Source: Oscillospiraceae bacterium (GTDB lineage: Bacteria; Bacillota; Clostridia; Oscillospirales; Oscillospiraceae). From it: a stretch of DNA of 64,000 nt. This document shows, piece after piece, positions 11,205-19,551 of this stretch. The notes under the pieces are model-generated. The model worked only from the letters and a program-made list of their open reading frames with translations. It made no database searches and was not told the origin of the DNA. Where the stretch lies: contig JAZUEL010000040.1 in NCBI GenBank assembly GCA_045640125.1, positions 4,305-68,304 on the forward strand. The letters run 5' to 3'. The position numbers and the translations under genes were made by a program. Within the stretch, counting starts at the first letter, position 1, and each line of letters starts with the position of its first letter.

Positions 11205-11219
11205 AACCGTCCTTCTTTT
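11187..11219. terminator. Bidirectional hairpin between mobA and the 3' deacetylase fragment
   Basis: 14-bp stem AAAAGAAGGACGGT / ACCGTCCTTCTTTT with loop TTGAA. It overlaps both stop codons. Confidence 0.65.
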
Positions 11220-11460
11220 ATGCGGCGTTGTTGGGACACATCATGCCGGTGTTGTCGATGGTATAGGAGCCTTTGAGCAGAAGCTCCGAGACGGGAATGA
11301 TGGTGTAGCCCTCGGAGAGCAGGTATTCGATGATGCGGGGGAGAGCCTCGGGTGTGTGCAGCGCGGCGTTGTGGAACAGAACGATCGATCCGGGCACGAC
11401 CTTTTCCGTGACGCGCTGATAGATCTCGTCCGCCGAAAGCTCCTTCCAGTCAAGACTGTC
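11218..11460 (-). pseudogene. 3' (C-terminal) half of a split PdaB-like CE4 polysaccharide deacetylase gene
   Basis: The minus-strand frame reads DSLDWKELSADEIYQRVTEKVVPGSIVLFHNAALHTPEALPRIIEYLLSEGYTIIPVSELLLKGSYTIDNTGMMCPNNAA*. It contains NodB motifs 4 (DxxDW) and 5 (LFHN). It has no start codon or RBS of its own. The frame stays open upstream into non-homologous sequence up to a stop near 11541. It is absent from the ORF track because it lacks an initiator. Confidence 0.8.
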
Positions 11461-11625
11461 CCTAAATGCAACAGATTCAAGCCCTGTGATACCAATGCTT
11501 TGCGGATTTTTCTGTGCCTTTACAAAGCTTGCAGATTTGACCGATCAAAGAGGAATAACCCATAGCCTTGGAGTAATTCTGAATACGCTCCTTATTGCTC
11601 TTTCAGGCTGAGTTATATCTCTACG

Positions 11626-12195
11626 TTAAAAGTTGAATTTCACTCTCATCGGTTTTGCATCGGGAGAATCTTTGAGAAAATCCATCAACAATATTTTCAA
11701 GTCATCGGTGTGATCTTCGGAAAGATCTTCGTAGTCGAGTTCCTTCATTCTGCGAACAAATAGCAAACCTTCTTCTCCTACTTCGCCCGTTGGTGCAAAT
11801 CCTGTTTTTTCAAGAACTCTCCGGGAAGCAGTATTAGACTCTTCAACTTCCGCCTTAATACATACTACATTGGGCTGCCTTAGAGCCCAATCTACAACTG
11901 TATTAACTGCCTCTGTTGCATAACCGAAGCCCTGATAATCATCGGCAATACCGTATCCAATTTCTGAGATTCCTTCTTCGGAAATTCCTTTGAAGCAAAG
12001 CTCTCCGATATGCGTGCCATCTTTTAATTCTATCATCCAGATGGCATACCACTCCCACTGATTCGGATGTGACAGGCAACCATCCAGCATTTCCGTGTAA
12101 GCGGCTTTCAGAACATCCACCGACTGCGCCGCAATGAATGCCTCCATCTGTTCTTTGGACGCTGCATAAATTTTCAAACGCTTTGTTTCTATCAT
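11626..12195 (-). CDS. GNAT family N-acetyltransferase (RimJ/RimL-like)
   Basis: 189 aa. Starts with the typical ETKRLKIY... and has an acetyl-CoA binding Q/RxxGxG/A-type motif (YQGFGYATEA). Low-G+C cargo of the element. Confidence 0.75.
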   Translation of the reverse strand: MIETKRLKIYAASKEQMEAFIAAQSVDVLKAAYTEMLDGCLSHPNQWEWYAIWMIELKDGTHIGELCFKGISEEGISEIGYGIADDYQGFGYATEAVNTVVDWALRQPNVVCIKAEVEESNTASRRVLEKTGFAPTGEVGEEGLLFVRRMKELDYEDLSEDHTDDLKILLMDFLKDSPDAKPMRVKFNF

Positions 12196-12241
12196 GTTTT
12201 CCTCACTCCATTATGATTTAACCGGCTCTGCAAATATCCCC

Positions 12242-12559
12242 TTATCCGTGATAATCACCGGTGGCAGAATCTACTGTGACATAAGGTACGGACTTTCCAT
12301 CGATAATCACATAGACCTGAAAAATGCCATCGCCCAGATCTTCGTACCGGTCGGGTGTAACCCCGTATTGCGCCAAAAGCGATGCCTCAAAATCGGTTTT
12401 CCAGTCTTCTTCCGTACCGGAATCAATCGGTGTCTCCGGTTCTTCTGTCGGAGAGGGTAAATCATTCGCTGAGTCCTGCTGTGCTGCGGAAAGGCTGCTG
12501 CAGGCGCATAGGGAAGCCATTATCAGTAAAGCGATTATACAAGCTATTATTTTTTTCAT
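12242..12559 (-). CDS. Small lipoprotein of unknown function
   Basis: MKKIIACIIALLIMASLCACSS gives a signal peptide plus lipobox (LCAC). GGGAG RBS 7 nt upstream of the ATG at 12559. The ORF-track start at 12589 is less likely. Confidence 0.6.
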   Translation of the reverse strand: MKKIIACIIALLIMASLCACSSLSAAQQDSANDLPSPTEEPETPIDSGTEEDWKTDFEASLLAQYGVTPDRYEDLGDGIFQVYVIIDGKSVPYVTVDSATGDYHG

Positions 12560-12668
12560 TTTTGATCTCCCATCATCTGATTTGTTCATTTTGCATCTAA
12601 CTTTCCGAAAAACAAATACATTCCGAGTACTGCTTGAGCTTCTTTCTGATATATAAGAGATATGGCAT

Positions 12669-13421
12669 TTATCGTTTCCACCGTTTCAGCGTCGGGAACA
12701 ATTTTACGCAATACGCTTTCATTTCTTCGTTGGTCATGCCCGCCTGTGCGCCGAACTGACTGCACATTTCGATATATTCCTCCATCGAAACCTTGTCAGT
12801 AAATTCGCCGTTCACATAGCAGTATTTGCAATAGTCTTCGTTGATGCTGCCGTCGGCGTTGGTGCCGAAAACCTCTTCGGATTCCATCGGCATTCCACAG
12901 CTCTGACAGATCTTCAGATCCGCCTTTTTCTTTATCGGCACCCATATACCGCACTCATAATCCGGAGACTGCGGATTCCCGGCAGAATAGATTTCAAGGG
13001 AGGACGAGCCGATTTCATACATCGTTTTTATGTTCGGCGCCCATTCTTGCCACACCTGTGTGTTGAGCGTCTGCAAAGACTGCGGGATCGCACCCTTTGC
13101 CGAGAAGATTGCCCAGTCGCCTTCCGGGAAGGTGAAAAGCTCCAGTCCCTCCGGCACATTGCCGCCCTTGTAAAGTCCGGCGATCCAATAGGCAAAGCCG
13201 TTATCTCCGTCGGCGCAGATGGCGTACATACCAATGCCGTTTTCAAGGAACGCCGCTTCAACGGGTGTTTCGGGCTTCATCGTCTGCCAAAGACGGGCAT
13301 GCTTCTCGTTGTATTCTTTGTCCCAAAACTCAGGGCATTTCCGATAGCCCTCATTCGGTGCAATCTCGGTATGAAAACCGATAAAAGTCAGTTCGTTTTT
13401 GTGTTCGTAGCTTATGTTCAT
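12669..13421 (-). CDS. GyrI-like (AraC effector-binding type) domain protein fused to a C-terminal putative zinc-ribbon domain
   Basis: The [20 protein letters not shown]... effector-binding fold pattern is followed by [36 protein letters not shown]...FPTLKRWK (Zn_ribbon_2-type signature). The ATG at 13421 forms an ATGA overlap with the upstream GNAT stop, so the ORF-track start at 13661 was trimmed. Confidence 0.7.
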
Positions 13422-13960
13422 TGATTTTTCCTCCATTCTTCTTTCGTTAGTCGGGTAATATGCTCGGTGCGGATATCGTCCATCAGTTTCCAATGAATGT
13501 CCTTGTTTGTGTGGTGATATGTAAATCCACACTTTTCCTGACAGCGTTTTGATTTTTCGTTGCCGTCGAAATAGCCGCACCAAAGGGTATCTAGATGTAA
13601 ATCGGCAAAAGTGTGACGGATAAGTTCTCTTGTTGCTTCGGGAATCAGTCCATGCCCCCAAAAGGGAACGCCGATCCAGTAGCCGATCTCTCCCTCGTTT
13701 TCAGACAAATCAAGATTGCTCTGTTTGCCGATCATCAGTCCGATACTGCCGATGGCTCTGTTATCTTCTTTTAAGCAGACGGCGTAAGTCTCGGGCTCCG
13801 ACAGTACTGTACGGATAATCTCACGGCTGTTTTCAACGCTTGTGTGCGGCGGCCATCCGGCAATAGGACCTATACGGTCATCCTTTGCATATTCGTATAA
13901 ACTCTCCGCATCCGCTTCATCCCACGGACGGAGGATCAGTCTTTCTGTATGTAAATTCAT
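13418..13960 (-). CDS. GNAT family N-acetyltransferase (RimJ/RimL-like), second copy
   Basis: [27 protein letters not shown]... is the canonical N-terminus of this subfamily, followed by an [18 protein letters not shown] core. Confidence 0.8.
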
Positions 13961-14017
13961 TTTCTTGCCTCTTTTATGCTTTTCATGTTTTTTGTGTTTG
14001 CAAATCCCGGTTTATCC

Positions 14018-14254
14018 TTAATTCGCTCGTATGGTCGTATATTTCTTTTTGATTGGATGTCGGATGACCGTTTTCCATTTCTCCGGCGCGACCTTTCTCG
14101 CGTCAGAAAGGTAGATTTCGTGATGAATGCGCGTGTCGGAAAAATCGTTTTCATATCCGTTTTCGGCAAGGTATTGAGTCATCAACTCGATAGTTTCCGG
14201 CTCATTATCAAAAGGACCTATGTGCATGATTTGCACGCAAAGGCCCTTTTTCAT
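14018..14254 (-). CDS. GyrI-like domain protein, C-terminal part only (probably an N-terminally truncated remnant)
   Basis: 78 aa: QIMHIGPFDNEPETIELMTQYLAENGYE...RIHHEIYLSDARKVAPEKWKTVIRHPI matches only the C-terminal half of ~200-aa GyrI-like proteins. It sits directly after the TetR gene. Confidence 0.5.
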   Translation of the reverse strand: MKKGLCVQIMHIGPFDNEPETIELMTQYLAENGYENDFSDTRIHHEIYLSDARKVAPEKWKTVIRHPIKKKYTTIRAN

Positions 14255-14270
14255 CTCTTTTCCTGATTTT

Positions 14271-14864
14271 TCACGCTTTCTTGTAGATATTGATAAAATG
14301 CCTTACGAATGCCTCGATCTTCTCGATAATTTCCGCTTCCTTATCGGGCTCGCGGTCACAGAAATGGATCAGCGCCGTGATCGGAGCGGTATAGGCAAAG
14401 GCCAGCATCTCCGGGTCATCTTTTTTCAGAATACCGTTATCCATCATTTCCGCAAACATTTTCGTATAGATGTCCTTTGTTCCGGTCAAAAAGTGCAGAG
14501 TAGCAAACCGGCGCGCTCTTTCATCACGGAACTGTTCCGTTAGAAGGAGTTGTCTTGTAAGGATCACCCTTTTATCGTGCATGGTAAAGTCCAGCATCTG
14601 CATCGTCATCGTAAAAAGTTCATCACAGGAATTCGGCACAGGCGGCATCTTCTCCGGCGAGCCGAAGCGGGCGCTATAATAGGCTTCCATTTGGTCGAGG
14701 ACGGCATTCCAGATATCCTCTTTGCATTCATAGTGCTTATAAAGGGCAGACTTGCTGAGTCCCATTCCTGCGGCGAGATCACGCAGATTGGTTCCCTTAT
14801 ATCCGTTTTCGGCGAAGCTTACGAGCGCCGCATCAAGAATCTTTCCCTTCGTTGTGTTTTCCAT
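14271..14864 (-). CDS. TetR/AcrR family transcriptional regulator
   Basis: N-terminal HTH: GKILDAALVSFAENGYKGTNLRDLAAGMGLSKSALYKHYECKEDIW. The ATG at 14864 was chosen (MENTTKGK...). The ORF-track start at 14903 would overlap the operator repeats. Confidence 0.85.
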   Translation of the reverse strand: MENTTKGKILDAALVSFAENGYKGTNLRDLAAGMGLSKSALYKHYECKEDIWNAVLDQMEAYYSARFGSPEKMPPVPNSCDELFTMTMQMLDFTMHDKRVILTRQLLLTEQFRDERARRFATLHFLTGTKDIYTKMFAEMMDNGILKKDDPEMLAFAYTAPITALIHFCDREPDKEAEIIEKIEAFVRHFINIYKKA

Positions 14865-14885
14865 TACATCCTCCGTATAAATATG

Positions 14886-14928
14886 GTGACCGCTTGGACA
14901 CATATTATTATAGTGACCGCTTGGTCAC
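14886..14928. promoter_or_regulatory. Two tandem copies of a 16-bp palindromic operator (GTGACC-N4-GGWCAC), probable TetR binding sites
   Basis: GTGACCGCTTGGACAC at 14886-14901 and GTGACCGCTTGGTCAC at 14913-14928. They lie 22-64 nt upstream of the TetR start. The arms GTGACC/GGTCAC are perfectly palindromic in copy 2. Confidence 0.6.
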
Positions 14929-15141
14929 TTGTCAATGAATTTCACGAAAGTGTTCCCATTAAAAAGGCGACAGGGATTCTCCCTGCCGCCGTGCCTCCGT
15001 TATGCGTAGATTCAATCACAATTGACGATTTCCGTTGATATAATTACCCCCCCCATACAAGGCTTGGTTTCAGTATAGACCATTCGTTTCCCCGCATATA
15101 CCGCCGGAGGCGGACATAGCTTGAACCGAGGAGGCTCGGCT

Positions 15142-15285
15142 ATGGAAGTAAAGCACACCCACCCGAAGTACGAGACGGAAAGTCAGCGCCTGGACAAGCT
15201 GAAGGAGACCCGTACGGTATGTCTCTCGGTGGTTGCGCGTCTTCGCGGAAAGAGCGATAAGCACACGCTGAGAAAGAGTGCGTGA
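15142..15285 (+). CDS. 47-aa basic small ORF, translationally coupled to the serine recombinase
   Basis: ATG at 15142 is preceded by GAGGAGG 4-5 nt upstream. Product is MEVKHTHPKYETESQRLDKLKETRTVCLSVVARLRGKSDKHTLRKSA*. Its TGA (15283-15285) lies 1 nt before the recombinase ATG (15287). Too short for the ORF track; no family recognised. Confidence 0.4.
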   Translation: MEVKHTHPKYETESQRLDKLKETRTVCLSVVARLRGKSDKHTLRKSA

Positions 15286-15286
15286 C

Positions 15287-16744
15287 ATGAGAGAGAATGC
15301 TGTATATGCCCGTCAGTCCGTGGAAAAACGGGACAGCCTTTCGATCTCCGGGCAGATCGACCTCTGCTGCCGCAGCGCAGGGGTCGATCACCTGCGGGAG
15401 TATAAGGACAGCGGCTACTCGGGCAAAAATACCGAGCGCCCGGGTTTTCAGCGTCTGATGAAGGATATCAAGGCAGATCGGATCGGCACCCTGTACGTCT
15501 ATCGTCTTGACCGCTTCTCCCGCAGCGTGGCGGATTTCGGCCAGCTCTGGGAGGTCTTACAGGCGCACAAGGTCGAGTTTGTATCCGTCAGCGAGAACTT
15601 CGATACCAAGACCCCCATGGGCCGCGCTATGCTCCATATCATCATGGTCTTTGCCCAGCTGGAGCGCGAAACGATCGCCGAGCGTGTCCGCGACAACTAC
15701 TACCGCCGCCACGCGCTGGGACGCTGGCCCGGCGGCCCCGCCCCCTATGGCTACGACAACGGGCGCGTTGCCGACGACAGCGGACGCATCGTCCCCGCCA
15801 TCATCCCCAATGCCGATGCCACCATGGTGCAGACGATATTCAACTCCTATGCTGAGGAGGGAATGTCCCTCGGTATTCTGGCAAAGAGCCTCAATGACGG
15901 CACAAATACCGCCATTCAGCGCGGTACCTGGGACAATGTGGCGCTCTCCCGCATCCTGCACAATCCAACCTATGCCATGGCGGACGCGCAGGTGCGGCTG
16001 TATCTGTTGGCGCAGGGCATCAATGTCACGTCGCCGGAGGAGGATTTTGACGGCATCCACGGTGTCATGCTGGTGGGCAAGCACACCGGCAGCGAGCGAA
16101 AGTACACCGATATGCGCGACCATACCGCTGCCGTCCTCAATAGTGTCGGCCTCGTGTCCTCGGAGCTGTGGCTTCGGTGTCAGGACAAGCTCTCGCATAA
16201 CCGCCAGATCGGCAACGCCGGTAAGGGGAAGCACACATGGCTGTCGGGGCTTTTGAAATGTGCCAAATGCGGCTACAGCATCAAGATCGCCTCTGAGAAG
16301 GCGCACCGCTGGATGCTGTGCAGCGGGCGGTACAATCTGGCGCACTGCGATGCTTCCATCCATGTCGATCTTTCCGAGTTGGAGGCTGTCGCTCAGCAGG
16401 AAATCGAAAAGCTTTTGGCGGAGTGCCCCGAGGAAGCCGCAGAGCCGGAGCAAGATGATTATGCGGCGCATCTGGCTGAGATCGACCGACGGGCGGATCG
16501 TCTGCTGGATGCTTTCGCGGAGAGCGATATGTCCGATACATACCTCAGGCGTGCATTGGGACGTTTGGAAAAGGAACGGCAGGTGCTTCTGGAAAGCCGC
16601 AAACGCATGGAGAGCCGTCCGACCTTGCCGGACAAGCTGGTCTTTTCCGAACTGAGCTTTGAGGAAAAGAAAGCCGTCGCTGCACAGTTCATCGAGCGTA
16701 TTGAGGTGGGGGAGCAGTCGGTGGAAATCAAGTGGAAGATCTAA
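15287..16744 (+). CDS. Large serine recombinase (SpoIVCA/phage-integrase type)
   Basis: Resolvase catalytic domain (AVYARQSVEKRDSLSISGQ with the nucleophile Ser context; YVYRLDRFSRS), recombinase domain, and a zinc-ribbon (CAKCGYSIK...CSGRYNLAHC) followed by a coiled-coil tail. 485 aa from the ATG at 15287. Confidence 0.9.
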   Translation: MRENAVYARQSVEKRDSLSISGQIDLCCRSAGVDHLREYKDSGYSGKNTERPGFQRLMKDIKADRIGTLYVYRLDRFSRSVADFGQLWEVLQAHKVEFVSVSENFDTKTPMGRAMLHIIMVFAQLERETIAERVRDNYYRRHALGRWPGGPAPYGYDNGRVADDSGRIVPAIIPNADATMVQTIFNSYAEEGMSLGILAKSLNDGTNTAIQRGTWDNVALSRILHNPTYAMADAQVRLYLLAQGINVTSPEEDFDGIHGVMLVGKHTGSERKYTDMRDHTAAVLNSVGLVSSELWLRCQDKLSHNRQIGNAGKGKHTWLSGLLKCAKCGYSIKIASEKAHRWMLCSGRYNLAHCDASIHVDLSELEAVAQQEIEKLLAECPEEAAEPEQDDYAAHLAEIDRRADRLLDAFAESDMSDTYLRRALGRLEKERQVLLESRKRMESRPTLPDKLVFSELSFEEKKAVAAQFIERIEVGEQSVEIKWKI

Positions 16745-16796
16745 ATGAAAGAAAAGGAGACATATTCTATCCGGAATTCATCCGATAGTAGATTAA

Positions 16797-16835
16797 CGCG
16801 CACCGCATTCATACGAATACGGTGCGCGTGATTTT
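16797..16835 (+). terminator. Intrinsic terminator after the recombinase gene
   Basis: 9-bp stem CGCGCACCG / CGGTGCGCG, 14-nt loop, followed by TGATTTT. Confidence 0.6.
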
Positions 16836-17118
16836 GTCATCAACTTGCTTGGAATTTTTACTTGAATGAGGAATAAGATGCCTTTACAATGAAATAACAG
16901 TATAACAAGGTTATGCCGTCTGTTTTCGGGCGGCGTGTTCGAGTAGGGCAGATTGCTTTCCAGCTGGTTGATGTTCGCCGTCAGCACCGCGCCCAGAAAA
17001 TACAGCGAGAGGACGAGAAGCTGAAAGGTCGTTTTTTTATAATTTAATCATATCATCTTAGGGGTCAACGGAAAACGCCTCTCCGGCGACGAGCCGCTAT
17101 GAGGGCAGCGGTGTCATG

Positions 17119-18729
17119 TCAATCTTCAACGGGGGCGCGGAGTTTATCCATGTCGATCTGATTGAGCTTCACTGCCACGCGCAGCAGTTCAAGCTGCAGA
17201 AGGAAGCCGTTGAGCGCCGGAAGCAGGTAGCCGAGGATCGTGCCGAGCAGAATGGCGAGCGGGTAAACGCTCTCCGGCACGCCGCAGGCGGTGAACATGA
17301 TCGGCATGACCGCGAACACGGAGCCCGGGATGGGCGGCGCGGCAATGGCGAGGATGACCGATACGATCACGACACGCGCGAAAACCGAGCCCGTGAGCAC
17401 CGTACCGGTGACGGAGGCGAGCGAAAGCACCGTGAGTCCGAGGAAGACCGCCCCGCAGGGCATATATACCACAACGCCGAGCGGCAGCGCAAAGTCCGTG
17501 AGCTTTTCGTCGATGCCGAACTTGTCCTTGCAGCAGTGCATATTCTCCGGCAGCGCCGCGACCTGCGAGCTCGTGGTGAGGTTGATCATCAGCGTGGGCA
17601 GGGTCTTGCGGAAGATGAGGCCAAAGGGGACACCTGTGAGGATGCGGGTGCGGAGGATAGAAATAACAATCAGCACCGCACAGCAGACCGCAAAGAGGAT
17701 AAACACCCGCCCGACCGAGATAAACTCGCGCGGATCGCTGCTGTACATCAGATTGAAAATGCCAAAGAACACCACGAGCGGCAGCAGCTTGCAAACAACC
17801 GCCATCATACGGTTGATCAGGGTCGAGGCCTCGCGGATGATCGCGTTGAGTCCGCGAAGCTGATTGCCGAGGATCAGCATGACCACGCCCATGAAGATGG
17901 CGAGCGCAATGACCTGCAGATCGTTGTCGATGGTGAAGGGGTACAGGAGATTGTCCGGAACGATGTCCAGCACAAGCTGCACCGTCTGCGCCAGAACGCC
18001 GCCGGAGCTGTCTGTGCCGCCGCCGATGGGGTAGGAGAGCAGAGCTGCAAGAGCGATGGCTACCGCCGCGAGCAGATAGGCTATGCCCATCGCGCCGCAG
18101 ACCCGTTTGCCGATGCGCCCGAAAGAGGCTGCGTCATCCAGTCCCGTGATGCCTGTGATGACCGCGAGGAAGACGAGCGGTGTTGCCAACGCGGCGATCA
18201 CTGCGGTGAGCTTGTTGAAAACAGGCAGTGTGATGCCGGTATAGATGATCTCTGCCGCGTTGGGAGCAACAGAAGAAAGCAGGAGACAGGACACTACGGC
18301 CAGCACCAGCGCGCTCAGCATCAAAAAGAGCATCCGGTTTTTGACCGGACCGAGCTCCGCCGGAAGTGTGACGCAGTTCATATGCCGCCGTGCTATGTAG
18401 GAATAGCGCGGACGCACATCCAGTCGGCTCAGAATATCGTAGGCGAATTGCAGTTCGTCCTCCGGCTGCGCCACGGGGTCGATCTGCGGACCGTCCTGAC
18501 GCAGCTCGAATGTAAGCTGACCGAAGCGTTTACGCCCGACGATGCGGCAGGGCGTCTCCGTGCCGTAAAAGCGGCGGAATTTGATGAGCAGCTCCTCCAC
18601 GGCGAGGCGCATTTTCGTCTCGACGATGGCGCGTTTGCCCGCCTGCTTCAGATATTCCTGCGCGACCTCCTGCGACCATTCGGCAATGACCTCGTTGGTC
18701 AGGATGGCTTCGCGTTTGTAAAAGATCAT
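17119..18729 (-). CDS. Dicarboxylate/amino acid:cation symporter (DAACS/SDF family) with an extra ~125-aa N-terminal soluble domain
   Basis: Polytopic membrane core with family signatures (NLTTSSQVAALP, MPCGAVF, IAAPPIPGS). The ATG at 18729 (MIFYKREA...) has a GAGGTG RBS. The ORF-track start at 18807 remains possible. Confidence 0.75.
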   Translation of the reverse strand: MIFYKREAILTNEVIAEWSQEVAQEYLKQAGKRAIVETKMRLAVEELLIKFRRFYGTETPCRIVGRKRFGQLTFELRQDGPQIDPVAQPEDELQFAYDILSRLDVRPRYSYIARRHMNCVTLPAELGPVKNRMLFLMLSALVLAVVSCLLLSSVAPNAAEIIYTGITLPVFNKLTAVIAALATPLVFLAVITGITGLDDAASFGRIGKRVCGAMGIAYLLAAVAIALAALLSYPIGGGTDSSGGVLAQTVQLVLDIVPDNLLYPFTIDNDLQVIALAIFMGVVMLILGNQLRGLNAIIREASTLINRMMAVVCKLLPLVVFFGIFNLMYSSDPREFISVGRVFILFAVCCAVLIVISILRTRILTGVPFGLIFRKTLPTLMINLTTSSQVAALPENMHCCKDKFGIDEKLTDFALPLGVVVYMPCGAVFLGLTVLSLASVTGTVLTGSVFARVVIVSVILAIAAPPIPGSVFAVMPIMFTACGVPESVYPLAILLGTILGYLLPALNGFLLQLELLRVAVKLNQIDMDKLRAPVED

Positions 18730-18880
18730 CACAGTCACCTCGATCTGTGGATATATCAGCTTCATAGAAGATATACCTATTATAGGCGTTCCCGCTTTCT
18801 TTTGCAAGAAGCGCCCATGATCATCCTATCGTTCCGGCTTCACGGGTTTTTGGTATGCTCCTGTGTTTCTACAAACTTAC

Positions 18881-18947
18881 AAAAAATTGACCTTTCATCT
18901 TTGAAACGACAGAATGGTGTCGGCAGATGAAAGGTCAGTTCTTTTTT
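18881..18947. terminator. Bidirectional terminator-like hairpin just inside the right end of the element
   Basis: 12-bp perfect stem TGACCTTTCATC / GATGAAAGGTCA with a 26-nt loop, flanked by an A6 run on one side and a T-rich run on the other. Confidence 0.5.
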
Positions 18948-18999
18948 GTATGTAGGTTACTGTGAAGAAACCGCAAACCATTGGCACACAAGGACTTTC

Positions 19000-19551
19000 C
19001 TATGTTGCACTCAGCTCGCAGTTCCATTGGATTGCGCTCATGCCGAGAGAGTTTACGGTGGAAATGACATCGTCATCATACTCGCCGTAGGGGCAGCGGA
19101 ACAGGGTGGGAGCTTCGCCGGTGATGGCTTCGATTTTCTGGTTGCAGGCTGTGACCTGCTGTATGATCTCGCTTTCCGAAAGCTTCGCCATGTGGGGATG
19201 GTCGTCGGAATGGTTGCCCAACTCCATGCCTGCGTCGTAGAGCTGCTGCACGCTTTCGGGGTACTTATCCGCCCACATACCGACCAGAAAGAAGGTGGCC
19301 TTAACGCCGTATCGGTTGAGAATGTTGATCAGCTCCTCGGTGTCTTCGTTGCCCCATGCTGCGTCGAAGCTCAGTGCGACGGTTTTGTTGTCCCGCTGTA
19401 CGCAGTAGATGGGGAGCTCTCGTGTCGCCGCCGCGGCACCGACGATTGCCGGACTTGTCACTGCCCACAGGATCGCCGCTGCCGCGAACACAAAAGCGAC
19501 CGCGCCGATGAGCTTTCGGTATCTCCTCAGTATGTACCGTGTCTTTTCCAA
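19000..19551 (-). pseudogene. 5' (N-terminal) half of the split PdaB-like CE4 polysaccharide deacetylase gene
   Basis: TTG start at 19551 with a GGAGGT RBS 8 nt upstream. N-terminal TM helix. NodB motif 1 variant (ALSFDAAWGNED), motif 2 (NHSDDHPH) and motif 3 (FRCPYG) are present. Homology ends at ...LGMSAIQWNC, then the element-derived residues ELSAT* follow. Motifs 4-5 are missing here and are found at 11218-11460. Confidence 0.85.

Follow-up and report, generated by a model that had tools for sequence, protein, structure and literature searches.

What lies at the two ends of the element that interrupts a deacetylase gene in the stretch of Oscillospiraceae DNA analysed here, and could the gene be put back together from these ends? 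The stretch, which we refer to as the window, is 64,000 nucleotides of contig JAZUEL010000040.1 (positions 4,305–68,304), and the element body lies at positions 11461–19015 (7,555 bp, or 7,557 bp with one copy of the TC dinucleotide that flanks it on both sides) inside a gene for a PdaB-like CE4 deacetylase. The original prediction, made by reading the DNA letters, had taken the two ends for the attL and attR sites of a serine integrase, and this has found support in every part which can be tested in silico. We now consider it very probable that a site-specific element, mobilised by a large serine recombinase which it encodes (LSR; 15278–16744), has its attL at positions 11446–11480 and its attR at 18999–19030, and the architecture of the sites is in itself that of a textbook LSR.

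The broken codon and the point of exchange

On the + strand the left junction reads CCAGTCAAGACTG (11446–11458), TC (11459–11460) and then CCTAAATGCAACAGATTC (11461–11478), and the right junction reads CCTATGTTGCACTCAGC (18999–19015), TC (19016–19017) and then GCAGTTCCATTGG (19018–19030). Both sequences are present in the window as originally given, except that the right site had been started at 19001 and its sequence begins 2 nt earlier. TC had been described as a core shared by both ends, and it is indeed the sole sequence common to attL and attR, with the adjoining bases differing on both sides (C/G and G/C). This dinucleotide is non-palindromic and reads GA on the gene strand, where it provides positions 1–2 of an Asp codon.

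The codon concerned belongs to the DSLDW motif of the deacetylase, which is encoded on the – strand. The 5′ part of the split gene (19018–19551, – strand; 178 codons, recognised as an open reading frame (ORF) and by domain scan) encodes a transmembrane helix and a Polysacc_deac_1 (CE4) domain up to ...IQWNC, after which the frame enters the element as GAG CTG AGT GCA ACA TAG. The 3′ part (11218–11458, – strand) takes up with the last base of the Asp codon and runs on as SLDWK...LFHN... to its stop at 11218–11220, with no stops ahead of this and with 75–80% identity to the C halves of homologues interrupted at the same site. Read together with the left copy of the dinucleotide, positions 11460–11221 give GAC AGT CTT GAC TGG..., that is, DSLDWK...LFHN..., and when the flanks are joined through one TC copy the result is an ORF of 258 amino acids (aa). 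The crossover is therefore one that preserves the reading frame, as had been proposed.

An uninterrupted form of the gene is found in a relative on a contig (L092) which has the same neighbours as in the window, a MobA-like gene and recG, and which contains no element DNA. The 258-aa product of this gene, P0002, was found in a protein search with the window N half (178 aa, 98% identity) and it too carries the unusual Cys (IQWNC-DSLDWK). The joined window flanks and L092 share 88.6% nucleotide identity in one 2,063-bp alignment across the junction (with 6 small gaps, the positions of which are unchecked), and the empty site reads AATGGAACTGC-GA-CAGCCTCGACTGG with a single GA. The attB predicted for the window, AATGGAACTGC-GA-CAGTCTTGACTGG, is identical to this on the N side and has two synonymous differences on the C side. 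In most species of the genus, too, the gene is uninterrupted and encodes ...IQWNVDSLDWK....

The break point is shared by many related elements. A scan of species-representative genomes for the recombinase returned 70 loci with homologues 29–81% identical to that of the window, from Oscillospiraceae, Oscillibacter, Pseudoflavonifractor, Lachnospiraceae, Anaerovorax and others. Together with the window, these loci yielded 29 identifiable N-side junctions and 27 C-side ones with a deacetylase half (the recombinases there being 35–81% identical to the window's), and all 56 break at the same GA: the N halves all end ...W(N/D)(V/C) then GA, and the C halves all begin GA(C/T). Where both ends are available, the shared sequence is GA alone in 9 of the 12 entries, GGA in two and TTGA in one. 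It should be noted that the 12 two-ended entries represent 11 distinct elements (L018 and L066 are on one contig), that draft assemblies, in many cases metagenome bins, are the source of all junctions outside the window, and that related elements are non-independent samples.

We place strand exchange at GA because the related junctions all break there and because GA alone is shared in most of the two-ended entries. As tightly as sequence allows, TC (GA on the gene strand) is the only possible position for the exchange, and on the evidence of these junctions this one codon is occupied in other gut Clostridia by some 30 related elements. The window's genus has three more species interrupted at this point, and the element is carried at the site by 4 of the 25 genus genomes. 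Sequence by itself fixes the exchange point to 2 bp, and this provides exact attB and attP sequences for use in junction PCR or an in vitro assay.

Half-sites on the element and host sides

Read outward from TC, the two element arms match at 11 of 15, 17 of 25 and 35 of 51 positions in exact register with the dinucleotide (binomial P = 2e-4, 2e-5 and 7e-10, respectively, at a fixed register which was set independently by the gene break). The first of these counts reproduces the one given in the original prediction, and the other two show that the similarity extends further; the perfect 8-nt block described within the arms is TGCAACA, which is 7 nt long with a mismatch on each side. An unbiased repeat search of 7.9 kb returned the arms as the longest inverted repeat (11462–11512 / 18964–19014). 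The inner 24 nt of half-site P′ (11461–11484, + strand) are CCTAAATGCAACAGATTCAAGCCC, which fits the family consensus.C..TccgaAACAa..gAAAgcCC, and those of half-site P (18992–19015, – strand), identified from the inverted repeat and the family arm alignment, are GCTGAGTGCAACATAGGAAAGTCC when read outward.

The family consensus was derived from a gapless alignment, starting at the core, of 52 non-redundant arms. It has conserved blocks at positions 8–14 and 16–24, with information peaks at 8, 11–13 and 17–24. Arms belonging to the same element are more alike than arms compared across elements (means of 18.5 vs 11.6 matches per 25 positions for 11 elements), and in none of 20,000 permutations was the within-element similarity as high as that observed. 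The attP is thus an imperfect dyad of ~50 bp centred on the core (17/25 per window arm), as the LSR att model requires.

The host, or attB-derived, half-sites are CAGTCTTGACTGGAAGGAGC at the left junction (11439–11458) and GCAGTTCCATTGGATTGCGC at the right (19018–19037), both again read outward. The left one has ACTGGA at positions 9–14 and GGAAGG at 12–17, while the right one has ATTGGA at 9–14 and is identical to the L092 empty site over the 11 nt compared. The host-arm consensus sequences are CACaTCCCAcTGGAT on the N side and tagtCTgGAcTGGAAGG on the C side (outward), and the arms are most alike at a shift of 0 from the GA core through A(C/T)TGGA at positions 9–14 of both. A different host-side symmetry, ACTG / CAGT around the core, had been pointed out earlier; the letters are there in the window, but the symmetry finds no support as a functional feature, as its centre is displaced by 1 nt from TC and neither the nearest empty site (GCTG-TC-GCAGT, + strand) nor the family consensus conserves it. 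From these comparisons we treat it as a coincidence.

The arrangement of these arms can be compared with the structure of the LI integrase bound to attP, in which the zinc-ribbon domain (ZD) reads half-site positions 16–24 (PMC3783163). According to the LI model, the ZD motif lies 5 bp nearer the core in attB (positions 11–19), with no change in the position of the recombinase domain (PMC3783163). A matrix of attP positions 16–24 scored best on the C-side attB arm (B-right) at starts 11–12 (+3.1 / +2.6), with other offsets at ≤ –6, and on the N-side arm (B-left) starts 11–12 were among the best (–4.0 / –3.5), and a matrix of attP positions 5–14 scored best on the N-side arm at start 5 (+3.1). 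The outer of the two attP blocks recurs in attB 4–5 bp nearer the core, and the sites fit the LSR architecture clearly on one attB arm and marginally on the other.

Our element and the Listeria A118 / LI integrase system (PMC3783163; PDB 4KIS) have in common an imperfect ~50-bp attP palindrome around a 2-bp crossover, an inner recombinase-domain region followed by a ZD motif at 16–24 which is ~5 bp closer to the core in attB, and an identical order of protein domains, including the coiled-coil insert. In contrast, structural alignment of the two proteins gives only 15–17% sequence identity, the window core is TC/GA and its target is part of the coding sequence of a deacetylase, the element is non-phage, and the window family has an extra block at arm positions 33–45 which has no counterpart in the LI model. 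The 52 diverged attP arms and ~50 attB arms, all from one family with one target, constitute a natural data set. From their variation one can read off the motif positions that the LI structure predicts for the recombinase domain and the zinc ribbon, and this could help in choosing or re-targeting serine integrases.

The recombinase, its relatives and the possible rebuilding of the gene

The recombinase (15278–16744, + strand) is a protein of 488 aa with a catalytic Ser14, identified as an LSR by its domains, conservation and fold. It has Resolvase (PF00239, E = 2.3e-36), Recombinase (PF07508) and Zn_ribbon_recom (PF13408) domains and matches the phrog_95 integrase over the full length (E = 2.5e-92), and sequence searches also matched it to the TP901-1, SPbeta, Bxb1 and phiC31 integrases and to TnpX. 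In a comparison of 25 homologues, Y10, R12, Q13, S14 and the catalytic arginines were found to be invariant, as were C328, C331 and C348 of the zinc ribbon, with C357 at least 90% conserved. The AlphaFold model (mean predicted local distance difference test score, or pLDDT, of 81) consists of a catalytic domain, a long alpha-E helix, a recombinase domain and a zinc ribbon, with helices 394–415 and 420–445 between the ribbon strands forming a coiled-coil motif. The best Foldseek matches to this model were the full-length Bxb1, phiC31 and SPbeta integrase complexes (E ~1e-19), and a full-length match to the LI integrase was also obtained.

TndX of Tn5397 is likewise a clostridial LSR, and the central GA is the invariant dinucleotide of its targets (PMC4430133); our literature search found nothing tying TnpX to a GA dinucleotide. 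We nonetheless rejected a multi-targeting transposon of the TndX/TnpX type, as only the GA core is in common. TndX enzymes are multi-targeting and usually carry DUF4368, a domain which marks enzymes of this kind (PMC10083194), whereas the domain scan found no match to DUF4368 in the window recombinase and all junctions found for its family are within a single codon.

The host gene halves have mostly been kept open: all but one of the 29 N halves and all but one of the 27 C halves are intact, and a single locus, L049, accounts for both exceptions. This locus (OMVL01000039.1) is the only related one with a decayed host gene, having stops or a frameshift in the N half and an aberrant C tail. The ratio of non-synonymous to synonymous substitution rates (dN/dS) is 0.01–0.33 for 11 of 12 C-half pairs and 8 of 11 N-half pairs, the remaining four pairs being dS-saturated, and among the low values are those for gene pairs where near-identical elements interrupt both members (e.g. 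L085/L088/L050 and L078/L079). Recombinase divergence follows host-gene divergence (Spearman 0.79), which is expected for long residence, and frequent horizontal transfer was dropped as the main mode of spread because of this correlation. The related elements are found in either orientation relative to the host gene, and in many of them the recombinase gene starts 185–390 nt inside one end, with mid-element or far-end positions in others. In a co-directional class (L032, L034, L047, L061, L078 and L079) the recombinase is just downstream of the 5′ gene half and could be read from the promoter of the host gene. The window recombinase is 3.8 kb from the nearest element end, with a low-GC cargo block in between.

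The same deacetylase gene also has a second insertion hotspot, between FDAAWG and NEDT at residue 66/67 in NodB motif 1. The element found here is ~17 kb in size, with inverted arms of its own (TGATGTnnGAGTGCGGCA), a probable GG core and an LSR which is only 25–27% identical to that of the window. It was located at L094 (G017:C1, ~1020 and 18540) and L093 (G011:C41), with genomes G001, G007, G011, G014 and G017 represented. In G011 (= L048) the gene is split at both sites and is in three pieces, and this double split is also seen in ~9 of the 29 loci when judged by where the N-half alignments start.

We suggest that excision would proceed as follows. A recombinase dimer would bind each att site, with the recombinase domain contacting arm positions ~5–14 and the zinc-ribbon domain contacting positions 16–24 on the P-type (element) arms and ~11–19 on the B-type (host) arms. 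Following the chemistry of LSRs, from which we infer these steps, all four strands would be cut with a 2-nt stagger at TC/GA, the half-sites would rotate with their subunits, and the ends would be religated. Recombination between attL and attR would then give attB (...AATGGAACTGC-GA-CAGTCTTGACTGG...), in which the Asp codon of DSLDW and the 258-aa deacetylase are restored, together with a 7,557-bp circle carrying attP as an imperfect palindrome of ~50 bp, extendable to ~100 bp, centred on TC. TC, being non-palindromic, would set the element's orientation.

Excision would also need a recombination directionality factor (RDF), and a conserved 47-codon ORF (15142–15285, + strand; MEVKHTHP...) is a possible source of it. 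Its end overlaps the start of the recombinase gene, and in 39 loci homologues (MEIKHTHPxY...C.A..., some with an N-terminal extension) immediately precede the recombinase. The small ORF had no match among Pfam or PHROG families, and we go no further than to call its product a candidate RDF. In many relatives the protein is longer, with ..IVxFP..HRLxxGG.. ahead of this sequence; in the window the extension is in frame, closed by TAG and lacks an ATG. As a possible sporulation promoter we considered CATAnnnTG plus GGAGG, a stretch conserved upstream of this ORF, but it was left unused, since in many relatives it lies inside this longer reading frame and its conservation may be at the protein level.

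Sporulation genes are known to be interrupted by elements such as skin, vfbin, vrin, SPbeta, gin and yin (PMC4191935, PMC5595907, PMC10747680). Of particular relevance is gin in gerE of B. cereus ATCC 10987 (GirC and GirX; PMC5595907), which like the window element is a non-phage element inside a sporulation-type coding sequence (putatively so in the window), has a serine recombinase together with a small factor (in the window a candidate only), and has att sites forming an imperfect inverted repeat around the crossover (27 bp in gin, with a predicted terminal dinucleotide; PMC5595907). The 28.6-kb gin, however, has three recombinases and its common core is 9 bp long, against one recombinase and a 2-bp core in the window, and the two also differ in the target gene and the class of host. 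Sporulation-specific excision has been shown for gin, and for the window element it is a possibility. Precise, frame-restoring and RDF-dependent excision by an LSR is also seen for skin in sigK (B. subtilis SpoIVCA; C. difficile CD1231 with the RDF CD1234; PMC5025042), and SPbeta likewise uses an LSR and an RDF (SprA/SprB) in a frame-restoring excision from the sporulation gene spsM (PMC5499854). Both are unlike the window element in target gene and att sequences, and the latter is much smaller and without phage genes.

We favour the view that the interrupted gene is rebuilt rather than dead, based on the open gene halves and their dN/dS values, the presence of spo0A and spoIVA, the correlated divergence of recombinase and host gene, and the second LSR element. 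The genome from which the window comes has spoIVA (635.7 bits) and spo0A (292.2 bits) above the curated cut-offs, and thus the genetic capacity for endospores. As to when the gene might be rebuilt, we lean modestly towards excision in the sporulating mother cell, which would make the rebuilding developmental. The genes already known to be rebuilt by excision in sporulation are sigK, spoVFB, spoVR, spsM, gerE and yabG. The window site, in the catalytic Asp codon of a spore-cortex-type deacetylase, adds a candidate to these, and we found no paper naming a deacetylase or pdaB as an LSR target.

A number of observations weigh against these interpretations. The best NCBIfam match of the deacetylase is PdaB (TIGR02764), but at 207.8 bits this is below the cut-off of 237.4, and the empty site is known from another strain, a relative with the 88.6% nucleotide identity given above. 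The host arms of the window match at 9 of 20 positions in register, a poorer palindrome than the family consensus, and on B-left the matrix for the outer attP block is marginal, with starts 11–12 at –4.0 / –3.5 vs –2.8 at start 19. Nothing in the window itself indicates sporulation control, and the sole promoter-like site upstream of the recombinase operon is sigma-70-like (15015–15044). Exact searches returned no match for the predicted attB or for the host flank plus core in metagenome contigs, or for the predicted attP in viral contigs; the attB result can be put down to the two synonymous bases by which the nearest empty site differs.

It is possible, though in our view less likely than developmental repair, that the att sites work as described and that excision serves horizontal transfer or just the mobility of a cargo island, in the manner of an integrative and mobilisable element. 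The accessory cargo (GNATs, TetR and symporter) and its low-GC block would suit this, as would the patchy distribution within the genus, the sigma-70-like promoter, and some discordant identities, such as the 69% for the recombinase and 54–56% for the host gene between the window and L024/L029. However, the domain scan of the element ORFs found no transfer, mobilisation or phage genes, the overall divergence correlation and the purifying selection on the interrupted gene also argue against mobility as the purpose, and several species have the gene split at another catalytic motif as well, by the second LSR element, which is unrelated. Such a pattern is known for mother-cell sporulation genes (PMC5595907, PMC4191935).

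That these are real LSR att sites around a relic, which no longer excises and has left the deacetylase a pseudogene in this lineage, seems improbable. The empty exact searches in the metagenome and viral collections, the decayed host gene of L049 and the intact gene in most species of the genus would all agree with a relic, but the recombinase ORF is intact with its invariant catalytic and zinc-ribbon residues all kept, both gene halves are open with low dN/dS where dS is unsaturated, and the element arms keep the family consensus. Furthermore, the split gene is the only homologue of its type found in the 93.6%-complete genome.

We give almost no credence to the TC direct repeats and terminal inverted repeats being those of a DDE transposon with a 2-bp target duplication. 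The formal geometry is equal, with imperfect terminal inverted repeats and a 2-bp direct repeat on either side, but the scan of seven element ORFs revealed no DDE transposase and the LSR is the only recombinase. The junctions found all affect one codon of one gene in several Clostridia families, which indicates site-specific recombination, and the empty site has a single GA as conservative exchange predicts. Just as hard to believe is an exchange elsewhere, such as at the TGCA blocks 7–8 nt inside the element which the original prediction had named as the refuting case, since although palindromic TGCA is present in both arms, these bases are element-internal and absent from the empty site, the gene would not be restored, and attL and attR share only TC here and only GA in 8 other two-ended entries.

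The outermost arm block and the element cargo

The two arms of the window element remain alike beyond the canonical half-site of ~25 bp, with 18 of 26 matches at positions 26–51 (P = 9e-6). This includes an outermost block at arm positions 31–45, which is ACCAATGCTTTGCGG on the left arm (11491–11505, + strand) and matches at 13 of 15 positions the block on the right arm (18971–18985, – strand), which reads GCCAATGGTTTGCGG outward and was located in the family arm alignment; CCAATG(G/C)TTTGCGG is found on both at positions 32–45. A weaker family-wide block, caaGG.tTT, is seen at positions 33–41 across the 52 arms, and in these the outermost block shows partial inverted complementarity to the zinc-ribbon motif (AAAgCC ... 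GGnTTT). In a 7-pair helix formed by arm positions 18–24 with 36–42, 60% of the cells are paired, which exceeds both shuffle and slide controls.

We rejected a general hairpin or terminator as an explanation for this block, as the single-arm folds have a mean z of –0.9 with z < –2 in only 6 of 52 arms. The fold z of the window arms is +0.9 and +0.2, and RNAalifold found no consensus structure for the arms. Canonical serine integrases work without accessory DNA. The attP of this family may exceed the self-sufficient ~50-bp site, with the outermost block a putative accessory site for an extra recombinase subunit or for the small MEIKHTHP protein, but we consider this doubtful. If true, these would be LSR elements with control of directionality or timing at the DNA level, which the canonical serine integrases lack.

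The genes carried by the element are those for a GNAT, a lipoprotein-like ORF, a GyrI/Cass2 protein plus zinc ribbon, a second GNAT, a TetR regulator, the small ORF, the LSR and an SDF-family symporter, and they include the cargo block of lower GC. The symporter gene is bracketed by a 28-nt inverted repeat (82%; 17018–17045 / 18874–18901) and may be a nested acquisition. Between the symporter start and the right att arm (18881–18944) there is a 20-nt hairpin (90%) with a run of T. Outside the element, a single ORF of 7,988 codons (21870–45836, + strand) starts ~2.3 kb to the right of the 5′ end of the split gene. A pair of tandem 26-nt repeats (85%; 14876–14928) with GTGACC...GGTCAC palindromes overlaps a perfect sigma-70-like promoter (14935–14907, – strand) upstream of the TetR gene, and these repeats are probably TetR operators.

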